The position numbers were made by a program, and so were the translations under genes. From an uncultured virus (IMG/VR IMGVR_UViG_3300031746_002572) (taxonomy: Duplodnaviria; Heunggongvirae; Uroviricota; Caudoviricetes), in the IMG/VR virus record IMGVR_UViG_3300031746_002572: DNA of 20,000 bases; one strand, given 5' to 3'. Shown one piece after another: positions 3,206 to 18,724 of this stretch. Numbering within the stretch: the first letter of the stretch is position 1; every line of letters begins with the position of its first letter. Under the pieces are notes generated by a model, which searched no databases, was not told where the DNA came from, and saw nothing but the letters and a program-made list of their open reading frames with translations.

Positions 3206-3340
3206 TTAAAAATATCCTATTTTAATTCTTCTATTCTGACTACTCCCACGACTAAAGTCGTGGGGTTCTATTTTATTTGGAAACTCAAAATTCATTTTAG
3301 CATCATAAATTTGTGCTTTTAATATTTTTGTTTTTCTCAT
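3206..3340 (-). CDS. 44-aa ORF reading through the IS-end hairpin (may be non-functional)
   Basis: MRKTKILKAQ...IEPHDFSRGSSQNRRIKIGYF*, preceded by GAAGGA. Below the ORF-track cut-off. Confidence 0.3.
   Translation of the reverse strand: MRKTKILKAQIYDAKMNFEFPNKIEPHDFSRGSSQNRRIKIGYF
3237..3270 (-). mobile_element. orphan IS200/IS605-family right-end-like hairpin
   Basis: Perfect inverted repeat CCCACGACT-AA-AGTCGTGGG (3245-3264). The minus strand reads TAGAACCCCACGACTTTAGTCGTGGGAGTAGTCA, the layout typical of tnpB-element right ends. No tnpA or tnpB in the window. Confidence 0.6.
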
Positions 3341-3353
3341 TGCGAGTGTTCCT

Positions 3354-3530
3354 TCAAAATTTTATTACCGAGTTTTGCACTTTAGCCGGTTGTACGTTGG
3401 TCTGATTTTGAAGCCGCGCATTCATTGGACATTGATATTCCGCGCAATCATAATATTTCAATATTTTGCAAATATTGTTTTTTGTTAATTCTGGACAAAA
3501 TTTTCGTAAGTCTTTAAAATTTACTTCCAT
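3354..3530 (-). CDS. 58-aa Cys-rich hypothetical protein
   Basis: MEVNFKDLRKFCPELTKNNICKILKYYDCAEYQCPM...VIKF*. AAGGA upstream; start overlaps the methyltransferase stop. Confidence 0.55.
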   Translation of the reverse strand: MEVNFKDLRKFCPELTKNNICKILKYYDCAEYQCPMNARLQNQTNVQPAKVQNSVIKF

Positions 3531-4063
3531 ATTTTTCCTTTCTTTTGTGCCACTCTTAAAATTATTTCGGTATTACCTTTATATCCTCGCTGATAATATA
3601 AGCAACCAACAGGGAAACCAAAAGCGAATCCATGTTGCTGTCCTCCACCCATGTATAATATTTCTTTCAGACCCCCGTACTGTTCTACCATTTGCATTAT
3701 CTTATTGCTCTTTAATGCTTTAGCGACGGGAACAAAAAGAACGATATTATCCGCAACCATAAAACAATGCTCTAAAAAATTATCGTAAATAGAATATGGT
3801 GGGTTAGTCATTATCCAATCAACCTTTTTATTCCACTTAAAAAAATCTATTCCATCCTCTATTTCACAACGATATTTTGGCTGGTTGAATAAATCGAAAA
3901 AAACATTTTTACCTGCGGCTGGTTCTAAAATCGTTCCTTTTGGTTTATACCAACCATAAATAAATTTTGCAGTTTCTTTTTTTGTCATCACGCTATCTGA
4001 TGCAGTAGCAACTCCGCTTTTATTTGCTTTTGTTGGTTTTCCTTTTCTGGCGCAAAAATTCAT
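3521..4063 (-). CDS. DNA N6-adenine methyltransferase (small phage type)
   Basis: Motif I-like ILEPAAGKNVF, then EIEDGIDFF, then catalytic MTNPPYS. GAGGA upstream. Confidence 0.85.
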   Translation of the reverse strand: MNFCARKGKPTKANKSGVATASDSVMTKKETAKFIYGWYKPKGTILEPAAGKNVFFDLFNQPKYRCEIEDGIDFFKWNKKVDWIMTNPPYSIYDNFLEHCFMVADNIVLFVPVAKALKSNKIMQMVEQYGGLKEILYMGGGQQHGFAFGFPVGCLYYQRGYKGNTEIILRVAQKKGKIWK

Positions 4064-4089
4064 ATTAAAAGTTCCTCAAATTTTATTTC

Positions 4090-4161
4090 TGCCAACGTAT
4101 GATAAAGTAAGAAGTTGCGCTTCGCAATTTAGCCTTGCGCCTTACTTTGCTCTGTTGGTTG
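4090..4161 (-). mobile_element. attC-like recombination hairpin
   Basis: Minus strand: CAACCAAC-5 nt-AAAGTAAG...CTTACTTT-7 nt-GTTGGCA, with an inner AAGTTGCG/CGCAATTT stem and GCTTCGC apex (plus strand). It overlaps the stop of the upstream ORF. Confidence 0.6.
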
Positions 4162-4455
4162 ATGGCCTGCCGTTCCGATATTCGCGGGCGCATGTCCTTG
4201 TAAAAATTCCTCAATTGCTTCACGACATTGATTGCATACACTTCTTGCCCTTTCATTGTTCGCGCAATCAAGGGCATTCCTTAATAATTCTCTTCCTCTT
4301 CTGCCTGATAATCTTTCATGCTCAAATACTTTTGTTGCTTCTTCGGCTTCTAAATTTGCAGCATCCCAAGCTAAAGACGCAACCGTTAACCTATGGGCTA
4401 CTTCTCTCTCAGGACATTCAAAAACCAAAGAGTCTAAATATTCTTTTTTTGTCAT
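4129..4455 (-). CDS. hypothetical protein carried in a cassette-like unit
   Basis: The ORF track gives 4129..4500; the ATG at 4455 (MTKKEYLDSL) has an AGGAG SD and is the likelier start. Contains CxxC and is visibly more GC-rich than the surroundings. Confidence 0.65.
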   Translation of the reverse strand: MTKKEYLDSLVFECPEREVAHRLTVASLAWDAANLEAEEATKVFEHERLSGRRGRELLRNALDCANNERARSVCNQCREAIEEFLQGHAPANIGTAGHQPTEQSKAQG

Positions 4456-4504
4456 TCTTCGATTCTCCTGCGCCCGCTCCGTAATTAGGCAGGCTTTCAA
4501 CCAA

Positions 4505-4750
4505 CTAGTGATATGTTGTCATTCCCTTATTTAACACTTTATCAACAAACGGTTTAAATTTTTCAGATAATTTAAAACCATCTCGAATCAATTGATTAAT
4601 TACAGCATATCTAATGTATTTTGATCTTGTTCTACATTTAATTTTACTTGCCATAATAAGTGCTTTATCTGCCAATTCAGGTTCAAGATAAATTTTGTAG
4701 TTTTTTCTTAATGAATTCGTATCCATATATCTATAAATACAATTATTCAA
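4505..4750 (-). CDS. ribbon-helix-helix (CopG-like) DNA-binding protein
   Basis: YKIYLEPELADKALIMASKIKCRTRSKYIRYAV: alternating beta strand, helix, then the RS-x-hIRxA second helix. Confidence 0.65.
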   Translation of the reverse strand: MNNCIYRYMDTNSLRKNYKIYLEPELADKALIMASKIKCRTRSKYIRYAVINQLIRDGFKLSEKFKPFVDKVLNKGMTTYH

Positions 4751-4769
4751 AACCTTATTGCAAAAAAGA

Positions 4770-7182: not shown

Positions 7183-7230
7183 ATTTAAACTCCTTTATTT
7201 AATTGTTTTATACTAATAAATACAAATAAA

Positions 7231-7596
7231 TTAATTCTTATTGCAAATATTAATTAAATATAATTCTAAATTATCTAATTGTTTCCATTGATCAGGATGA
7301 TTCATAGATTGCCAGCATGACCAGCATATATTTCCTAATGATGTTTGCGTGAATATCGAAGCGGAATATTCATTATAACAGATAGGACACGAAATGTTTT
7401 TAAATAAACTTATGATAAATAGTTCTTCTTCTATATTCCCAATATTTATACTGGCTTCGTGGATAGGTTTAAACATACCTTGATTTTTTTTATATAAAAT
7501 TATTTTTGTGTTTGTCGGCGTTATTATAGGCAAATAATAAAAATTTTCAATGGTGTTGCCGTAAATAATTAATTCTTTAAATGATAATTTATTCAT
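7231..7596 (-). CDS. zinc-finger hypothetical protein
   Basis: 121 aa with CPIC and CWSC. Confidence 0.65.
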   Translation of the reverse strand: MNKLSFKELIIYGNTIENFYYLPIITPTNTKIILYKKNQGMFKPIHEASINIGNIEEELFIISLFKNISCPICYNEYSASIFTQTSLGNICWSCWQSMNHPDQWKQLDNLELYLINICNKN

Positions 7597-10672: not shown

Positions 10673-11758
10673 TTACAAGCTGCAAGTCGTACCGAAAGGC
10701 GCAATAGAATTATTATTGCATACCCAAAGTACCGAATATTCCGGTTGTTCGCTTGGAAATTTTCCTTGTAAATCAGTCATATAGATCAAACATTTTGGCG
10801 GGTGTTCATTGCAGTATTCAAATACGGGGTTAAAATCAGTACCACCACCGCCAATAGTTTCTAATTTTATATCGTCGCCGGTTTTAAATGTTTGTATATT
10901 TTGAATTTTAGCATCGCAATATATTACAGTTAATTCCGTACTGTATTGATTTAATATTCCATTTAATTCGGAAGAAAATTCATTTAATTGTTTTTTGTTT
11001 ATACTTCCACTTGTGTCTATTGCTACGGTAATATTTTCTAAATTGTCGCTTTGTATTCCTGGTAAAATCACACCTAAATGTGCATAGCGTTTATTTGGTT
11101 TTTGCCACGAAAAATCATTTTTGGCGTTGTGTTCTATGAATTGCCTTAATATTTCAAACCAAGGTAATTTAGGATTAATGATTTCATCGGCCAATCTTTT
11201 CAAACTATTTGGTAATTTTCCTTGTGCTAACGCTGTTTGCGCGGCCTGTTTTAATGCTACTTTCCATTGTCCTTGTATTTCCTCTTTATTCCCTACTGCA
11301 TCCTGGCATTGCCCTATATTCCAATTTCCTTTTCTTTTATTATTGCCTTGCCCTTTATCATCTTCATCTGGTAATAAATTATAAATTTCATCAGCACTTT
11401 TATTTTCGTATGACTTTTCATATAGACAATCTTTAGGTAATTCAAATTTTTCATTTATTAAAACAGAATTAACGCAAAAATCTCCTGCCATATTCCATTT
11501 TTTATTATCACGTTCACCACGCCTTGTAATATGGCATAAAGCACAATGTAACACTTCGTGGACTAAAACGCCTTTCAATTCACCATAGGAAAGTTTATCA
11601 ATAAAGTCCGGTTCATATATAATGCTTTCTCCATTTGTTGCCATTGTTCCTATACCTTTTTGTTCAATCATAGGTAGCTTTAAAATAAGCGAACCAAAAA
11701 AGGGGTTTTCAATAACTAAACTAATTCTAGCTTTTTGTATTTTTGTTTGTATGTCCAT
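10673..11758 (-). CDS. DUF2201-type metallopeptidase + vWA-like domain protein
   Basis: TMATNG, HEVLH, WNMAGD in the N-terminal domain; MIDAS-like AIDTSGS, GGGGTDF and YMTD in the C-terminal domain. Confidence 0.85.
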   Translation of the reverse strand: MDIQTKIQKARISLVIENPFFGSLILKLPMIEQKGIGTMATNGESIIYEPDFIDKLSYGELKGVLVHEVLHCALCHITRRGERDNKKWNMAGDFCVNSVLINEKFELPKDCLYEKSYENKSADEIYNLLPDEDDKGQGNNKRKGNWNIGQCQDAVGNKEEIQGQWKVALKQAAQTALAQGKLPNSLKRLADEIINPKLPWFEILRQFIEHNAKNDFSWQKPNKRYAHLGVILPGIQSDNLENITVAIDTSGSINKKQLNEFSSELNGILNQYSTELTVIYCDAKIQNIQTFKTGDDIKLETIGGGGTDFNPVFEYCNEHPPKCLIYMTDLQGKFPSEQPEYSVLWVCNNNSIAPFGTTCSL

Positions 11759-11788
11759 AATTCATGTTCCCAAATTCAATGTTCCCAA

Positions 11789-12628
11789 TTATCCAATATA
11801 TCCTTTCATTTTTTCTAATATTACGCTTGCATTTTGCGCCGTATCGTCTCTTATGTCTTTATTATTACGTAATGTTTCAGGATCAATAGCTAAGTTATTT
11901 AAAGCGTCTTTTGCTAATTGTTCAAGTTTTACATCGCCGGTTATATTTAATTTAGGCAAAAGTTTGCATAAATCTTTTAAATTCTCAATTAAACTATCTC
12001 TAAAAATAGAATCTTTTATTGATAATTTTTCTTTTATATGATTAATTGCGGTATATAAACGGTTCCATAGGTCTTTATTAGCATTTTCAATAGCTATTTT
12101 TGATTTTTCTTCTATACTTTGTTTAATTATAGCTGTTTCATAATCACTTAATTGTACTCTAAAATCATTTGAATCCGGCAATGGCATAATATCAGTATTA
12201 AAAGAGAATAAATTAATTACATGATTTTTTTCTGGATAATCGCTGGCGTTAAACATACTATTTAATTTAATTTTACTTTCTTCAACAAATGATTCATAAT
12301 TATCTAAAAATTTAGCTACAACGACTTCAAATTTATCTTTAAAAGATTTTATTTTCGTTGTATATTCAAAGAAATTGCTTGCCGGTAATATTCGCGCCCC
12401 TTCATCCATCCAAGGGAGAGTGTTTTCATAATGAAATACCCTAGCCTGGTTTACAATTTTTTGTATGTTTTCAAGGTTTTCTTTTGCGATTAATTGTTTA
12501 TTATAACGCCCTGCGTTGTTATCGGCGTTATGTAAATCATTAGTTTCTTTTGTTATTTTTTTGTCATATTTTCTGGCGCACCATTGAGAAATAGATAGAT
12601 TTATTAACATTGCTTTTTCATTCAACAT
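11789..12628 (-). CDS. DUF3150-like protein
   Basis: 279 aa, helical. SQWCARKYD, TLPWMDEGARILP, FNASDYP and FRDSLIENL resemble proteins found between phage AAA and vWA genes. Confidence 0.6.
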   Translation of the reverse strand: MLNEKAMLINLSISQWCARKYDKKITKETNDLHNADNNAGRYNKQLIAKENLENIQKIVNQARVFHYENTLPWMDEGARILPASNFFEYTTKIKSFKDKFEVVVAKFLDNYESFVEESKIKLNSMFNASDYPEKNHVINLFSFNTDIMPLPDSNDFRVQLSDYETAIIKQSIEEKSKIAIENANKDLWNRLYTAINHIKEKLSIKDSIFRDSLIENLKDLCKLLPKLNITGDVKLEQLAKDALNNLAIDPETLRNNKDIRDDTAQNASVILEKMKGYIG

Positions 12629-12926
12629 TTTGTCCCCCTAGTTTTTTAAATATTAATTCGGCAATTTCCTCTTTTGTATAATTGATAAATCCCATTTTTT
12701 TTAATACGTTAATTTTATTTATTAATTCAGATTCATATTTTAACATTTCGAATCTATGTTTATATGTTAGACAATGCTTAAACAAACTCCATGGATAATT
12801 TCTAGATGGTGCGCGTGTAGTGCAACATTTATATGATTGGCTTGGATACCATCTTTTGCCATTATCACATTTACCACTGGCTTTAAATGTATTAAGTAAC
12901 GGCTTTAATTCATTTATTAAATTCAT
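12618..12926 (-). CDS. Cys/His-containing phage hypothetical protein
   Basis: GKCDNGKRWYP...CC...RAPSRNYPWSLFKHC; overlaps both neighbours. Confidence 0.7.
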   Translation of the reverse strand: MNLINELKPLLNTFKASGKCDNGKRWYPSQSYKCCTTRAPSRNYPWSLFKHCLTYKHRFEMLKYESELINKINVLKKMGFINYTKEEIAELIFKKLGGQNVE

Positions 12927-13918
12927 ATTAATACTTCCTTATGATCAGAGGCCCACATAATAAATGTTTTTGTGCTGTTTATTTGGGGACATTTTTTAAT
13001 ACATTCCTTAACTAATAGAACATTAAATTCAATTTTATCTTTTGGAAATCTATTTGCATATATCATTATCCTGTCAAAATTACTTGTGCTGGCGATTGAA
13101 GACAAGGCTCCTATAATAGCATATAAACTAGCGATCTTTTCGGGTAATCTTGCGGTGTCTGGATTTAAAAGGATTTCATCACGACTAGGTAATTCATTAT
13201 AAACTTGTAAAAAACTTATTAATTCTACCGCAGCACCTTCACCTATGAAACCGGTAAATACATCTAGTTCAGCTTGTTTTGTGTTTAAATACCATTGCGC
13301 ACACATAGATATAGTTCTAGGTGTGCATGTATTTTCCATGCCATTTGCAGGTTTCCAATCGCTCAATAAATTCGGCCTAAATCTGGCAAAAGCTATAATT
13401 TCATGCGTTATATTATTATGTAAAGCCCAATCAGTCCAAGATTCAATATCGAATTCAACATTAATTATTAAACATCTATTTTTTAAGGGTTCTAAAATTG
13501 AATGCACACTAGCCCTGTCTTGTGCTCTGTTTGTAGCCATTATAAACCGTACATTATCGCTTACTTTGTGTTCTCCAATTTGCCTTGCTAGTATTATCTG
13601 CATGATTGCAGATTGAGTTAAGGGTACGGCTTGGCCTAGATCGTCAAAAAAGCATATAGTAGGCTTGTCAGCGTTAATTAAGCGGTTTAAATCACCTATT
13701 GGAAGGAATACGGCAGTATTGTTAATTATTGCCGGTAATCCTTTATAATCCGTAGGATCAGCAATAACAGGATGAGACAAAATTATATCATAATCACAAA
13801 ATTTAGCTAATTGTGCAACAATATCACTTTTGCCTATTCCCGGTTGTCCTGTAATTAATACAGGAACATTATTTTTAACTGCAATTTTCAAGTTTTGAAA
13901 TAATTTTTTGCTTGTCAT
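12923..13918 (-). CDS. MoxR-like AAA+ ATPase
   Basis: Walker A GQPGIGKS, Walker B CFFDD, MATNR sensor, LKNR arginine finger, TPRT. Confidence 0.88.
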   Translation of the reverse strand: MTSKKLFQNLKIAVKNNVPVLITGQPGIGKSDIVAQLAKFCDYDIILSHPVIADPTDYKGLPAIINNTAVFLPIGDLNRLINADKPTICFFDDLGQAVPLTQSAIMQIILARQIGEHKVSDNVRFIMATNRAQDRASVHSILEPLKNRCLIINVEFDIESWTDWALHNNITHEIIAFARFRPNLLSDWKPANGMENTCTPRTISMCAQWYLNTKQAELDVFTGFIGEGAAVELISFLQVYNELPSRDEILLNPDTARLPEKIASLYAIIGALSSIASTSNFDRIMIYANRFPKDKIEFNVLLVKECIKKCPQINSTKTFIMWASDHKEVLI

Positions 13919-14378: not shown

Positions 14379-14777
14379 CTATTCTTCCACTATAATATTT
14401 AATGCAGAAACCAATGGTGTTATTTGTGTTTTTTTTATTTTTGTGCCGTAAAGATCGGCTTTATAAAGATTGGCTCCACGGAGATTGGCTCCACGGAGAT
14501 CGGCTTCACGGAGATCGGCTCCATAAAGATTGGCTCCACAAAGATCGGCTCCACGGAGATCGGCTTCACGAAGATCGGCTCCATAAAGATTGGCTCCACA
14601 AAGATCGGCTCCACAAAGATCGGCTCCACGGAGATCGGTTTCACGAAGATTGGCTTCACAGAGATCGGCTTCATAAAGATTGGCTTCATAAAGATTGGCT
14701 CCACAAAGATTGGCTTTATATGTTGTTTCAATCTCTTTTAAAATCTTACCTGTAATTTTATGTTTAATTTGTACCAT
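14379..14777 (-). CDS. pentapeptide repeat protein, copy 1 (18 repeats)
   Basis: 21-aa leader + 18 x A(N/D)L(C/Y/R)(G/E/K) + 21-aa tail. Start reassigned to the ATG at 14777 after AAGGAGCACAA. Confidence 0.9.
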
Positions 14778-14845
14778 TTGTGCTCCTTTTTGGTTAATGT
14801 ATTTATTAATAAATACAATAAAATTATTTCTTATTGCCAATTTAT

Positions 14846-15010
14846 TTATATTTTTTTAAATTGGTGAAATTCATTTACTCTAATCAATCGTTTTAGTTCC
14901 AGACTTATAATTGTTTTGATTGTATTAGCATGATTATAATCATAGGAAATCCATCCTGCACACTCTCCAATAAAATCCATACAATGTTTTTCCCATTTTT
15001 TTAGTTTCAT
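14846..15010 (-). CDS. 54-aa hypothetical protein
   Basis: [24 protein letters not shown]...FHQFKKI*, with the same AAGGAGCACAAATG start context as its neighbours. Confidence 0.7.
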
Positions 15011-15124
15011 TTGTGCTCCTTTATTTTGTTCTAATTAATCTAGTCCATTGCCCGTATTTATTACGATATAAATACAGGTATAAATTCAATCCTAATTTTA
15101 ATTTTTTAATCATATATAACATCT

Positions 15125-15508
15125 TTATTCTTCCACTATAATATTTAATGCAGAAACCAATGTTGTTATTTGTGTTTTTTTTATTTTTATGCCGTAAAGA
15201 TTGGCTTTATAAAGATCGGCTCCACAAAGATCGGCTCCACAAAGATCGGCTCCACAAAGATCGGCTCCACAAAGATTGGCTCCACAAAGATCGGCTACAC
15301 GGAGATCGGCTTCACGAAGATCGGCTCCATAAAGATTGGCTCCACAAAGATCGGCTTCACGGAGATCGGCCTTATAAAGATTGGCTTCACGGAGATCGGC
15401 TCCACAAAGATTGGCTTTATAAAGATTGGCTCCACAAAGATTGGCTTTATATGTTGTTTCAATCTCTTTTAAAATCTTACCTGTAATTTTATGTTTAATT
15501 TGTACCAT
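15125..15508 (-). CDS. pentapeptide repeat protein, copy 2 (17 repeats)
   Basis: Same 21-aa leader as copy 1, 17 repeats, and a tail differing at 2 residues. Start reassigned to the ATG at 15508. Confidence 0.9.
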   Translation of the reverse strand: MVQIKHKITGKILKEIETTYKANLCGANLYKANLCGADLREANLYKADLREADLCGANLYGADLREADLRVADLCGANLCGADLCGADLCGADLCGADLYKANLYGIKIKKTQITTLVSALNIIVEE

Positions 15509-15524
15509 TTGTGCTCCTTTTTGG

Positions 15525-16130
15525 TTAATGTATTTCTCTGTCAATCAATTCCTTTAAAACACCACCACTATTGATATTTTCTCCTTTCTTTTTAAAAGTG
15601 TCTTTAATCTCTTTTTCTATAATTTTTAAACTTTTATTTGTATAACCACCTATTTTTTTTATTTGTTCTCTGATGGTACGGCAACGAGTGAATTTCGAAT
15701 AATTACCTGATTTTCTTTTTCTTTTCGGTTCGTAGCAATAACATTCCCGCAAATAATCAACAGCATTAGAGCTTAATCTTTTTTCCAGTCGTTCAATGTC
15801 TATTTTTTCAATGAGATTATATTCATTTTCAACGGAATTTTCATTTATTTCTAAAAATTCCGTTGATTTTATGTTATTAAACCTGTTCAAAATATTATTT
15901 AACTCGTTGTTAATTGATCGGATTAAATAATCATTATAATTTGCCATATATGATAAGGAACATAATTTAACCCGTAGAGAGTTTTTTATCTCATCATATT
16001 CCGGCAGTAAAAAAATTTTACGTTGAGCAGTGATCATATCTATAATCCATTGTTTTGATTTTAGAAAATTAGTCGTTAATTGTCTATTTTCTATTTTAGG
16101 AATTTTAGGAATTGAAACAATATTAAGCAT
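15525..16130 (-). CDS. possible divergent sigma-factor-like protein
   Basis: YNDYLIRSINNELNNILNR resembles sigma region 2; EKIDIERLEKRLSSNAVDYL resembles the lead-in to region 4. AGGAG SD. Similarity is weak. Confidence 0.4.
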   Translation of the reverse strand: MLNIVSIPKIPKIENRQLTTNFLKSKQWIIDMITAQRKIFLLPEYDEIKNSLRVKLCSLSYMANYNDYLIRSINNELNNILNRFNNIKSTEFLEINENSVENEYNLIEKIDIERLEKRLSSNAVDYLRECYCYEPKRKRKSGNYSKFTRCRTIREQIKKIGGYTNKSLKIIEKEIKDTFKKKGENINSGGVLKELIDREIH

Positions 16131-16292: not shown

Positions 16293-16848
16293 TTATATGA
16301 CCGGAAACAATTCCAGCTGTTCACCATGCTTAATTTGCTCATAATTAACGGCGTTTTTGGCCTGTTTGATCATTTCTTTTTTTCCAGCGTCTCCATAAAA
16401 ACCCCAGCATGAATCTATCTGATAATTCGACTTCATCATTCAAAAACTTTTCGACTTTTTCAATCAATTTTTTGGTTAATATTTTGCCTCCATAGGCTTT
16501 TAAAATGTCTTTTTTTGTTGCAAAGACGATACCTACTTGCCCAGAATCAAATTCTGCATGCCCTTGTGGTAAATGGCCATAAAACGGATTTCCTTTTTTA
16601 CTGGCTTTCATTGTGATCCCGGAATGATCATATAAAAACAAATTCAGATATACCGGGTTTTCTTTTAAAATAAATTCTTTTAATTGATCCGCTGAAACAA
16701 AGTCAGCACAATTGCCTAAATCGTATCTTGAATGGAAACAAACGAATTTGCCTAGTGTTTCCATTTCTTTAATAGGGTTCTCTACGGTTTCATCAAAAAA
16801 GATTTTAATTGCATGATTTTTGTAATTAATTGTTTCAATCGCTTTCAT
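16293..16848 (-). pseudogene. frameshifted conserved phage protein (YDHSG / DSGQVG / DSCWGFYG motif family)
   Basis: The frame from ATG 16848 holds LYDHSG and FDSGQVG up to DEVEL. The expected IDSCWGFYG...QLELFPVI* lies in a different frame ending at 16293. Confidence 0.7.
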
Positions 16849-17642: not shown

Positions 17643-18289
17643 ATACATTGGTGCTATATCTGCAAGTGCATTATCATAGCCATGTATTTGTAGGTATGTC
17701 ATACTATCAGTAGTTTGTTTTTCGATAATCCCTAAACTATTTAAGATATTTTTTATTTTTTCCATACATATAAAATACATTTTGCTATAATTTGTTTTTG
17801 TATGACGCTATACCATATATGGTGGTTTTACATTTTTAAACTCTACCATATATGGTATAAAAAATGAATCATACTATATATGGTAGAAATAAATAAAAAT
17901 AAATACCATATATAGTATAAATGTTATTTTTAAAAAAGGTTCTATTTGTATTTTGTTTAAAATCAATGTGTTATATATTATTATATAAAATAAATAAATG
18001 ATAAAATATCATTTCCTTGTAAGTCATTATCAAATAACAAGATAAAAATACATGATAAAATAAAGAATAAAAACAAATAAATAATAAAATTCTACCATAT
18101 ATAGTATATCTCAAATAAAAATAAATACCATATATTGTATGATATAAGATTTCTACCATATATAGTATAGCCACAATATATAGGATACCATATATAGTAG
18201 AAAAATAATATTTCACCTTGAATAAAAATAAATACTATTGCATATAGCCCCAGTGTATTAGCACTATATCTGCAAGTGCATTATTATAG
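17640..18289. repeat. direct repeat pair 17654-17679 / 18264-18289 (25/26 identical), extendable to 40 bp
   Basis: CTATATCTGCAAGTGCATTAT(C/T)ATAG occurs twice, 610 bp apart. The preceding 14 bp differ only by transitions. Confidence 0.9.
17811..18199. promoter_or_regulatory. array of eight palindromic TAC(C/T)ATATAT(A/G/T)GT(A/G) boxes, NrdR-box-like
   Basis: Boxes start at 17811, 17844, 17872, 17904 and 18093, 18126, 18154, 18186, plus a degenerate copy at 18172. They fit the NrdR consensus acaCwAtATaTwGtgt at all upper-case positions. The repeat itself is certain; the NrdR assignment is inferred. Confidence 0.7.
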
Positions 18290-18487
18290 TGTAGACCATA
18301 TAGACGGCTGGGTGGCAAGGAGAGGATAGAGAGGATGAGTTACCCACCCCCCACTTTATTTTTATGTCAGTTTTTTAGGCGTTGACAGTTCATTGACAAA
18401 AAAATTTTTACATCTATTTTTTTATATAACCGTATGATTGACAAAAATATATTTGCAATAAGGTTTTGGATAATTGTATTTATAGGT

Positions 18488-18724
18488 ATGACGCATGAAA
18501 GATATATGGAATTAAAGCTTATATTTGGTTCGAGGGTATATGAGAATTATATTCAAATTGTTAAAGTTCTGGTAAAGAATGGTGTTAGCAGAGAAGAAGC
18601 CCATAATTATCAGCGTTATGATATGAAAGTTAAATTATTTACTTCTATTTTTGAAGGTGATAATAAATATAAAGACAGAGCGGGTTATAAAGAATTTACT
18701 AAAACCATTGGAGTAGAACCATGA
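18488..18724 (+). CDS. hypothetical protein
   Basis: The track ORF is 18434..18724; the internal ATG at 18488 (MTHERYMEL) is a plausible start. ATGA overlap with the next ORF. Confidence 0.55.
   Translation: MTHERYMELKLIFGSRVYENYIQIVKVLVKNGVSREEAHNYQRYDMKVKLFTSIFEGDNKYKDRAGYKEFTKTIGVEP

Follow-up and report, generated by a model that had tools for sequence, protein, structure and literature searches.

The unit at positions 4096–4504 (minus strand) of the window, as the whole 20,000-nucleotide stretch of DNA analysed here is called, is probably a gene cassette, with one ORF, of an integron-like system carried by phages. It occupies the first position after an attI-like docking site. The likely agent of its insertion is a small Xer-type tyrosine recombinase without the I2 insertion, whose source likely lies outside the locus. 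The system lies outside the IntI/attC family. A preliminary description had read the unit as an integron cassette; the complementarity of its own ends, the trailing hairpin and the insertion at a GTT core bore this out, and the membership of the IntI/attC family did not.

The window is the terminal 20 kb of G000, a 73,224-bp linear viral contig of 30% GC estimated to be 40% complete, and a single sequencing run, of a sediment metagenome that may be its source, contains it. The unit is surrounded by phage-type genes (RuvC-like, HU-like and an AAA/VWA pair). Consecutive genes for an AAA ATPase, DUF3150 and DUF2201 (VWA-like/metallopeptidase) were found at window positions 10673–13918, a tandem pair of pentapeptide-repeat genes, 88% identical, at 14379–15544, with a common 40-nt start region that occurs again at 16846, and densely packed palindromic repeats at 17806–18170. 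A short element at 3222–3271, which we take to resemble the end of an IS200/IS605-family element, is common to contig G001 (loci L006 and L013) and to another part of G000 (C1 47985–48009). A long run of ORFs at C1 37,400–53,000 of G000 appeared by eye to be sugar-modifying and glycosyltransferase-like. The features recognized in and around the unit were the following:

4096–4504, minus strand: intact gene cassette (leader, ORF, tail, hairpin), recognized from the complementarity of its own ends and from a frame as in the array cassettes at C1 6378 and 10434
4456–4505, minus strand: cassette leader, with an R'-like core, an 18-nt arm, an inner 9-bp arm (4477–4469) and a Shine-Dalgarno-like purine run; copies at C1 6377, 7703, 10433 and 12786
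4455–4129, minus strand: 108-aa ORF, the final ~21 codons of which come from the shared tail and hairpin; stop 28 nt past AAC
4154–4193, minus strand: cassette tail, in which an inner 9-bp arm (4192–4184) and an 18-nt arm running to the R''-like AAC can each pair with the leader
4094–4156, minus strand: attC-like hairpin belonging to the phage family with an asymmetric loop (1 versus 4 nt); 96–97% copies at C1 6703–6802 and 10883–10983
4502–4573, minus strand: attI-like docking site, sharing 72 identical bp with the head of a large array (C1 5662–5733); A before the GTT core at 4505
4505–4726, minus strand: ribbon-helix-helix (RHH)-like ORF of 73 aa (81 from TTG 4750), whose 3' end contains the docking site in frame and whose TAG ends on the core G
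4727–4764, minus strand: promoter-like motif, about seven copies in G000
3521–4096, minus strand: decayed second unit, with a cassette-type start at 4096 and a DNA methyltransferase ORF at 4063–3521 (phrog_799, E 7e-19)
3354–3530, minus strand: decayed third unit, with a 58-aa ORF, a leader remnant and half a hairpin (AAC 3391–3389), read by eye

The coordinates and letters first reported for the unit were correct: it starts at 4505–4488 and ends at 4171–4154, and its own leading GTT core is complementary to its own trailing AAC core over 16/18 positions with a perfect run of 9. The length of 409 bp (4504–4096) also stood, G 4505 being the final base of the upstream TAG. A second inverted 9-bp pair, 4477–4469 with 4192–4184, extends this end complementarity. 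The hairpin encloses 57 inner bases between AAC (4156) and GTT (4096), and the fold z was −2.99 for 4090–4165 (plus strand) and only −1.79 and −1.25 on the two strands of the wider interval 4085–4185. Folding of the bottom strand with the unit's own start, as in the circular form, gave −25.7 kcal/mol versus −12.5 kcal/mol for the integrated form. The GC content of the cassette was 0.43, above that of the upstream (0.22) and downstream (0.32) DNA and of the contig (0.30).

As had been noted, the window cores fit neither GTTRRRY nor RYYYAAC, the other canonical attC core. Canonical attC sites have spacers of 5 nt between R'' and L'' and of 5–6 nt between L' and R'; the R' side of the window site is 3 nt longer, outside the canonical spacing. 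The earlier remark that no extrahelical base is evident needs correction: at 3 nt from the core, the R'' arm of the site and of two sister hairpins has one bulged base, and the window copy differs from its sisters by three changes in that place. A cut exactly at G^TT could not be maintained, since 5 bases are repeated at both junctions and the comparison narrows the cut to the GTT core only. The ORF, taken at first to end before R'', reads through it and stops inside the hairpin.

No match to the 108-aa ORF was found in Pfam, PHROG or NCBIfam, and homolog searches gave no usable relative, the one weak partial match (E 3.7e-6) being to a 447-aa protein; the best Atlas score, 0.78, serves as a lead only. 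An Rfam scan of the unit returned chance matches only, and comparison of the unit with 50,697 phage records gave no match. The exact 18-mer of the cassette end occurred in viral contigs at 4 loci, all in high-GC unrelated DNA. Among the assembled contigs of run X1 no joint across the unit was found, and contig depth was 9.4 in the cassette body and about 10 in the upstream flank, neither of which has a bearing on excision.

The 72 identical bp upstream of the unit comprise 68 bp before the window's G and 4 core bases. A different cassette follows the copy at the head of the large array, and the stretch is non-folding (only −3.9 kcal/mol); because it is duplicated ahead of different first cassettes and does not fold, it is classed as an attI-like docking site. 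The preliminary description had missed that the site is a dedicated, duplicated one and not a chance GTT. In 13/13 heads located by complementarity alone, one of which (L021) was later classed as a hairpin, an A precedes GTT; hairpin sites have C. Six further heads, chosen with that A imposed, stand outside the 13. The heads have a weak arm-spacer-arm symmetry of 11-7-11 (n = 19), with 4.7/11 matches at spacer 7 versus 2.5–3.4 at other spacers; the window head matches at 6/11, and the window docking site departs in its left arm from the consensus of the recombinase-linked heads.

Duplicated heads were also present in L042 and L047. The repeated head of L021 was considered as a further duplicated docking site and rejected, since its folding energy of −14.9 kcal/mol makes a hairpin variant more likely. 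The L021 array, in the complete 213-kb phage G003, contains two copies (3842 and 10471) of a 46-bp hairpin in which A precedes GTT; the element is a variant hairpin or else a docking site able to fold.

The gene that contains the docking site had Atlas features of 0.94 with Arc/CopG-like structure rows, and no Pfam match. Weak look-alikes of it precede array heads in L040 and L032. Small genes of 49–86 aa, some of them RHH-like by eye, were seen at the heads of the arrays of L006 (446–723), L032, L040, L078 and L211; they occupy the place held by the recombinase in other arrays, and two weakly resemble that of the window. The promoter-like motif at 4727–4764 recurs in the window at 18452–18489, near 7210–7250 and at 14804–14847, and in C1 at 1425, 4938, 16605 and 24562. 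It likely represents a phage promoter class, and the copy at 4727–4764 would likely drive both the RHH-like gene and the cassette.

The DNA downstream of the cassette looks like two decayed further cassettes. No matching own end of the second unit was found within 1.5 kb, and the first cassette of L340 opens with the same 12 bases as that unit. Since the downstream DNA is decayed cassette, the junction CACTAG^TTGGCAG, previously proposed as the empty site, would be the docking site joined to the second cassette. The exact docking-site motif gave 0 loci in viral and metagenome contigs, and hence no relative with an empty site was found.

A free-offset scan identified the hairpins as having 1 unpaired base after AAC and 4 before GTT. 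A search with the loop motif gave 4 loci, two of which lie in large phage contigs (G001 and G002) with such sites; L005 and L007 were discarded as chance matches. The site model was a two-arm weight matrix, the alignment of the variable hairpins being too poor for a covariance model. Trained on 24 sites of G001 and G002 alone, it scored the window site at 36.9, compared with a best score of 26.3 in 20 shuffled genomes, and outside the large array the window site alone exceeds that level; the window proper holds one whole site and one half site.

With a junction pattern, 119 viral loci were retrieved, of which 80 had full flanks. At least three sites were present in 17/119 viral loci (13 contigs) and in 1/119 cellular-genome loci, from a cellular scan covering 7/64 parts of the collection; these counts measure spread, not frequency, because pattern and model derive from the family itself. 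The neighbours of the lone cellular locus with an array appeared phage-like by eye. An offset of 3 was found in 119/146 sites, and in 100/125 after removal of duplicate loci. Among these 125 sites RYYYAAC occurred in 7 and GTTRRRY in 6, and the bulge lay on the R' arm in 53 and on the R'' arm in 11 and was absent from 61, the window subfamily being one of the few with it on the R'' arm. Because the 125-site geometry shows them, the deviations in cores and bulge, earlier listed as departures from type, are family-wide rules and not decay. The preference for bottom-strand folding was slight (22/35 sites, −17.3 versus −16.9 kcal/mol).

Complementarity of cassette ends was likewise general. In 32 cassettes of three phages the leader/tail duplex had −24.4 kcal/mol versus −11.8 kcal/mol for mismatched pairs (0/20,000), and after removal of the outer 18 nt still −13.3 versus −8.6 kcal/mol (0/20,000). 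An inner perfect repeat of at least 7 bases was present in 41/63 cassettes versus 10% of random pairs, and in 46/63 the ORF extends past AAC. The same hairpin was found behind the same tail and ahead of three different starts: the hairpin travels with the upstream gene. A mirror model, in which the top strand is cut in R'' and the hairpin belongs to the downstream gene, was rejected, since leaders directly follow heads and hairpins co-vary with tails.

No recombinase is present near the unit, as stated before; PF00589, TIGR02249 and the clade profile found none in all of G000, and because of this the link to an enzyme rests on other phages. In G002 a recombinase directly precedes the array and heads a clade of 16 proteins of 40–53% identity, with a score gap beyond. 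The clade alignment led to 160 recombinase loci. In the five loci with at least 41% identity to the clade recombinase P0003, among them L261 (= G002), which defined the clade, a head lies 0–38 nt past the recombinase stop in 5/5; the three with enough downstream DNA all have hairpins (8, 2 and 11 scored), and two end before any hairpin. The recombinase stop of L262 ends on the core G, as the window gene does. Only one of the remaining 155 loci has a site at all, a single one at the threshold score. Integrons have intI divergent from the cassettes and attI at its 5' end; the enzyme linked to the phage family lacks I2, is co-directional with the cassettes and is followed at its 3' end by the docking site.

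The IntI-type recombinase first invoked is not supported, as the enzyme linked to the site family lacks the IntI-specific insertion (I2). The clade scored 114.5 against TIGR02249 (cut-off 265), in two stretches. The alignment of P0003 with archaeal XerA (4a8e) had hardly any gaps, and that with IntI4 (2a3v) fell into two pieces; the clade is accordingly taken to lack I2. A structure model built from the alignment (pLDDT 90.7; a single-sequence model at 39.5 was set aside) was matched by Foldseek to IntI4 first (TM 0.73), with an E-value level with that of XerA. In 50,697 phage records the best matches to the clade were near 27% identity. The available sections of PMC8138268 call the I2 insertion essential for integron function, and those of PMC4792948 treat it as the mark of a cognate integrase.

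Among 12 other array-bearing records, no PF00589 match was found in G001 and 9 viral records, two of them complete genomes of 213 and 168 kb; matches were present in G002 and a cellular bin. As most array-bearing records have no such match, supply of the recombinase in trans thus appears common in the site family, and complete phages with arrays and no recombinase would point to an enzyme shared between phages.

That a host IntI-type integrase inserted the cassette in trans, the Xer-like genes at other arrays being bystanders or serving another site type, is unlikely. It draws on a second array in G000 (L012, C1 24,600–28,100, minus strand), in which 7 near-identical 107-nt sites, with 5/6 spacers in 7/7, delimit 6 self-complementary cassettes, whose ORFs are AT-rich and partly hydrophobic. 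One phage thus contains two site families that are unrelated, and the canonical 5/6 spacing of the second suggests that the phage probably meets a true IntI. The two complete array-bearing phages without a recombinase agree with a host enzyme, and so do reports, in the accessible parts of the sources, that IntI1 can recombine phage attC sites (PMC9892861) and that attC sites without extrahelical bases still recombine, with weaker strand choice (PMC2727003). Against a host IntI stand the rarity of canonical cores (7 and 6 of 125 sites), the offset of 3 in 100/125, a bulge that sits on the R' arm (53) or is absent (61) far oftener than it is on the R'' arm (11), the docking site abutting the clade recombinases in 5/5 and the single array among 119 cellular loci (7/64 parts).

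The large array (L011) spans 8.5 kb at C1 5,730–14,290 of G000, 43–52 kb from the window unit in the order as assembled. By self-comparison, the window hairpin, leader and upstream DNA each recur within C1 5.7–14.3 kb. Ten sites of the array score above the shuffle maximum. Decay was seen at several junctions, and coding sequence occupies hairpin loops as long as 181 nt. In G000 units the start paired with its own end in a mean perfect run of 7.2 versus 4.4 with other ends (n = 13, one unit mis-anchored and scoring 0 and one spanning several decayed units; 0/100,000 permutations). The cargo included 1 methyltransferase and 2 Lar-like genes among 18 ORFs scanned.

One leader/tail/hairpin frame surrounds unrelated genes in three cassettes (the unit described here and two intact sister units), and its leader recurs in two further, decayed units of G000. 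Among 1,953 cassette pairs, 4 shared the frame and carried unrelated cargo, three of these being formed by the window unit and its sisters, and 1 shared the cargo in different frames; as sharing runs both ways, frames and genes are combined independently. This reuse may reflect either a dedicated capture step or microhomology swapping. Three cassettes with a common frame and unrelated genes are new here.

The same likeness could be explained by a frozen copy, homologous or microhomology recombination having copied docking site and frame out of the large array with no site-specific event. Docking site, leader, tail and hairpin are indeed near-identical in the array, and the DNA downstream of the unit is decayed. 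Such an origin is nevertheless quite improbable. The window docking site lies in frame within an intact gene, for which reason it looks like the original, whereas the array copy is a 68-bp fragment without the gene; the 108-aa ORF had no copy in the large array or the other loci searched, and within the array no copy of the window leader stands directly behind the docking site.

An assembly chimera across the 57- to 101-bp repeats is very unlikely. Each junction of the unit touches a repeat, only one sample contains the unit, and the join of docking site to leader is not among the matching X1 pieces; a contig of run X1 made by another assembler nevertheless spans 4164–4491 without a difference, joining leader, ORF and tail, and the layout of small gene or recombinase, head and cassettes recurs in other contigs. 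Finally, the 18-bp inverted repeats, which surround one ORF at 16/18 with 5 bases repeated at the two junctions, can hardly be the ends of a small transposon or MITE with a target duplication, as no direct repeat of 2–10 bp flanks them, the right arm lies 58 bp inside the unit end, and each cassette has its own, different complementary ends.

For the preferred reading, a cassette inserted by an I2-less Xer-type enzyme, the following course may be proposed. The cassette would be excised as a circle, in which its own start and end would pair into a duplex arm of sufficient length to bind one enzyme monomer, and the stem beyond the 4-versus-1-nt loop would bind the other monomer. The bottom strand would then be exchanged within the GTT core, the cut position within the core being placed by analogy only, against the double-stranded docking site, and the junction would be resolved by replication. 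In first position the gene would come under the upstream phage promoter. The enzyme would come somewhat more probably from a co-infecting or resident phage than from the unseen 60% of the genome. As the cargo consists of phage accessory genes, including methyltransferases and Lar-like proteins, the likely benefit is a fast turnover of counter-defence genes.

Compared with integrons, the phage family has GTTG(T/G) cores and not GTTRRRY, a central loop of 1 versus 4 nt, no bulge or one that lies mostly on the R' arm, an additional stem between leader and tail, and ORFs that run into the hairpin (46/63). As far as the available text of PMC2727003 and PMC4792948 goes, integron cassettes are alike in having one promoterless gene, a trailing AAC/GTT hairpin and complementary own ends, and integron arrays in having one orientation behind a non-folding site. 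Extrahelical bases of canonical sites are placed there on the R''-L'' arm (PMC2727003, available sections), and the GTTRRRY core of attC is given in the accessible part of PMC9892861. The integrons and CALINs of phages in the same part of PMC9892861 are similar as integrase-less cassette clusters in lytic phages with methyltransferase cargo; their sites were found by canonical attC models and recombined by IntI1, and Xer goes unmentioned in that part. A CALIN is a group of at least two attC sites within a few kb with no integrase; for comparison, the window has one whole and one half site and the large array 10, the sites being non-canonical and the genome 40% complete. The window system differs from the published phage integrons and CALINs in its phage-specific sites, duplicated docking site and phage-encoded enzyme clade, whereas the second G000 array (C1 24.6–28.1 kb) is closer to their kind.

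The Xer/dif system and archaeal XerA (4a8e, 5hxy; PMC2958812, available portion) are alike in that they include the nearest sequence relatives of the enzyme with solved structures and in the weak head symmetry. In dif, 11-bp arms flank a 6-bp spacer (PMC2958812, same portion); in contrast, the head spacer is best at 7, and in place of a second dif the partner site is one of a family of folded hairpins arranged in tandem. No description of an I2-less phage cassette system was found in the literature, mostly open-access, on phage and Bacteroidetes cassette systems.

More tentatively, it is possible that large phages share cassettes through an I2-less Xer-type enzyme that recombines sites folded from single strands and would be an extant intermediate between Xer/dif and integrons, and that new cassettes arise when a phage ORF is captured into a reusable palindromic frame, seen three to five times with unrelated cargo in G000. 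Two questions are posed as open in PMC4792948: by what route the I2 domain could have arisen in the absence of hairpin sites, or hairpin sites in its absence, and how cassettes come into being, for which a reliable model is wanting. Hairpin sites with an I2-less enzyme offer a test object for the first, and one frame around unrelated genes in one genome offers one for the second; if sharing and frame capture are as just described, both the "chicken-egg" question of I2 and cassette genesis would become directly testable. A compact recombinase for single-stranded hairpins could also serve as a tool. Canonical attC searches would likely miss such arrays, so that phage accessory regions may hide many. 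If the present reading is true, integron-style gene swapping can work without the part of the enzyme thought essential for it.
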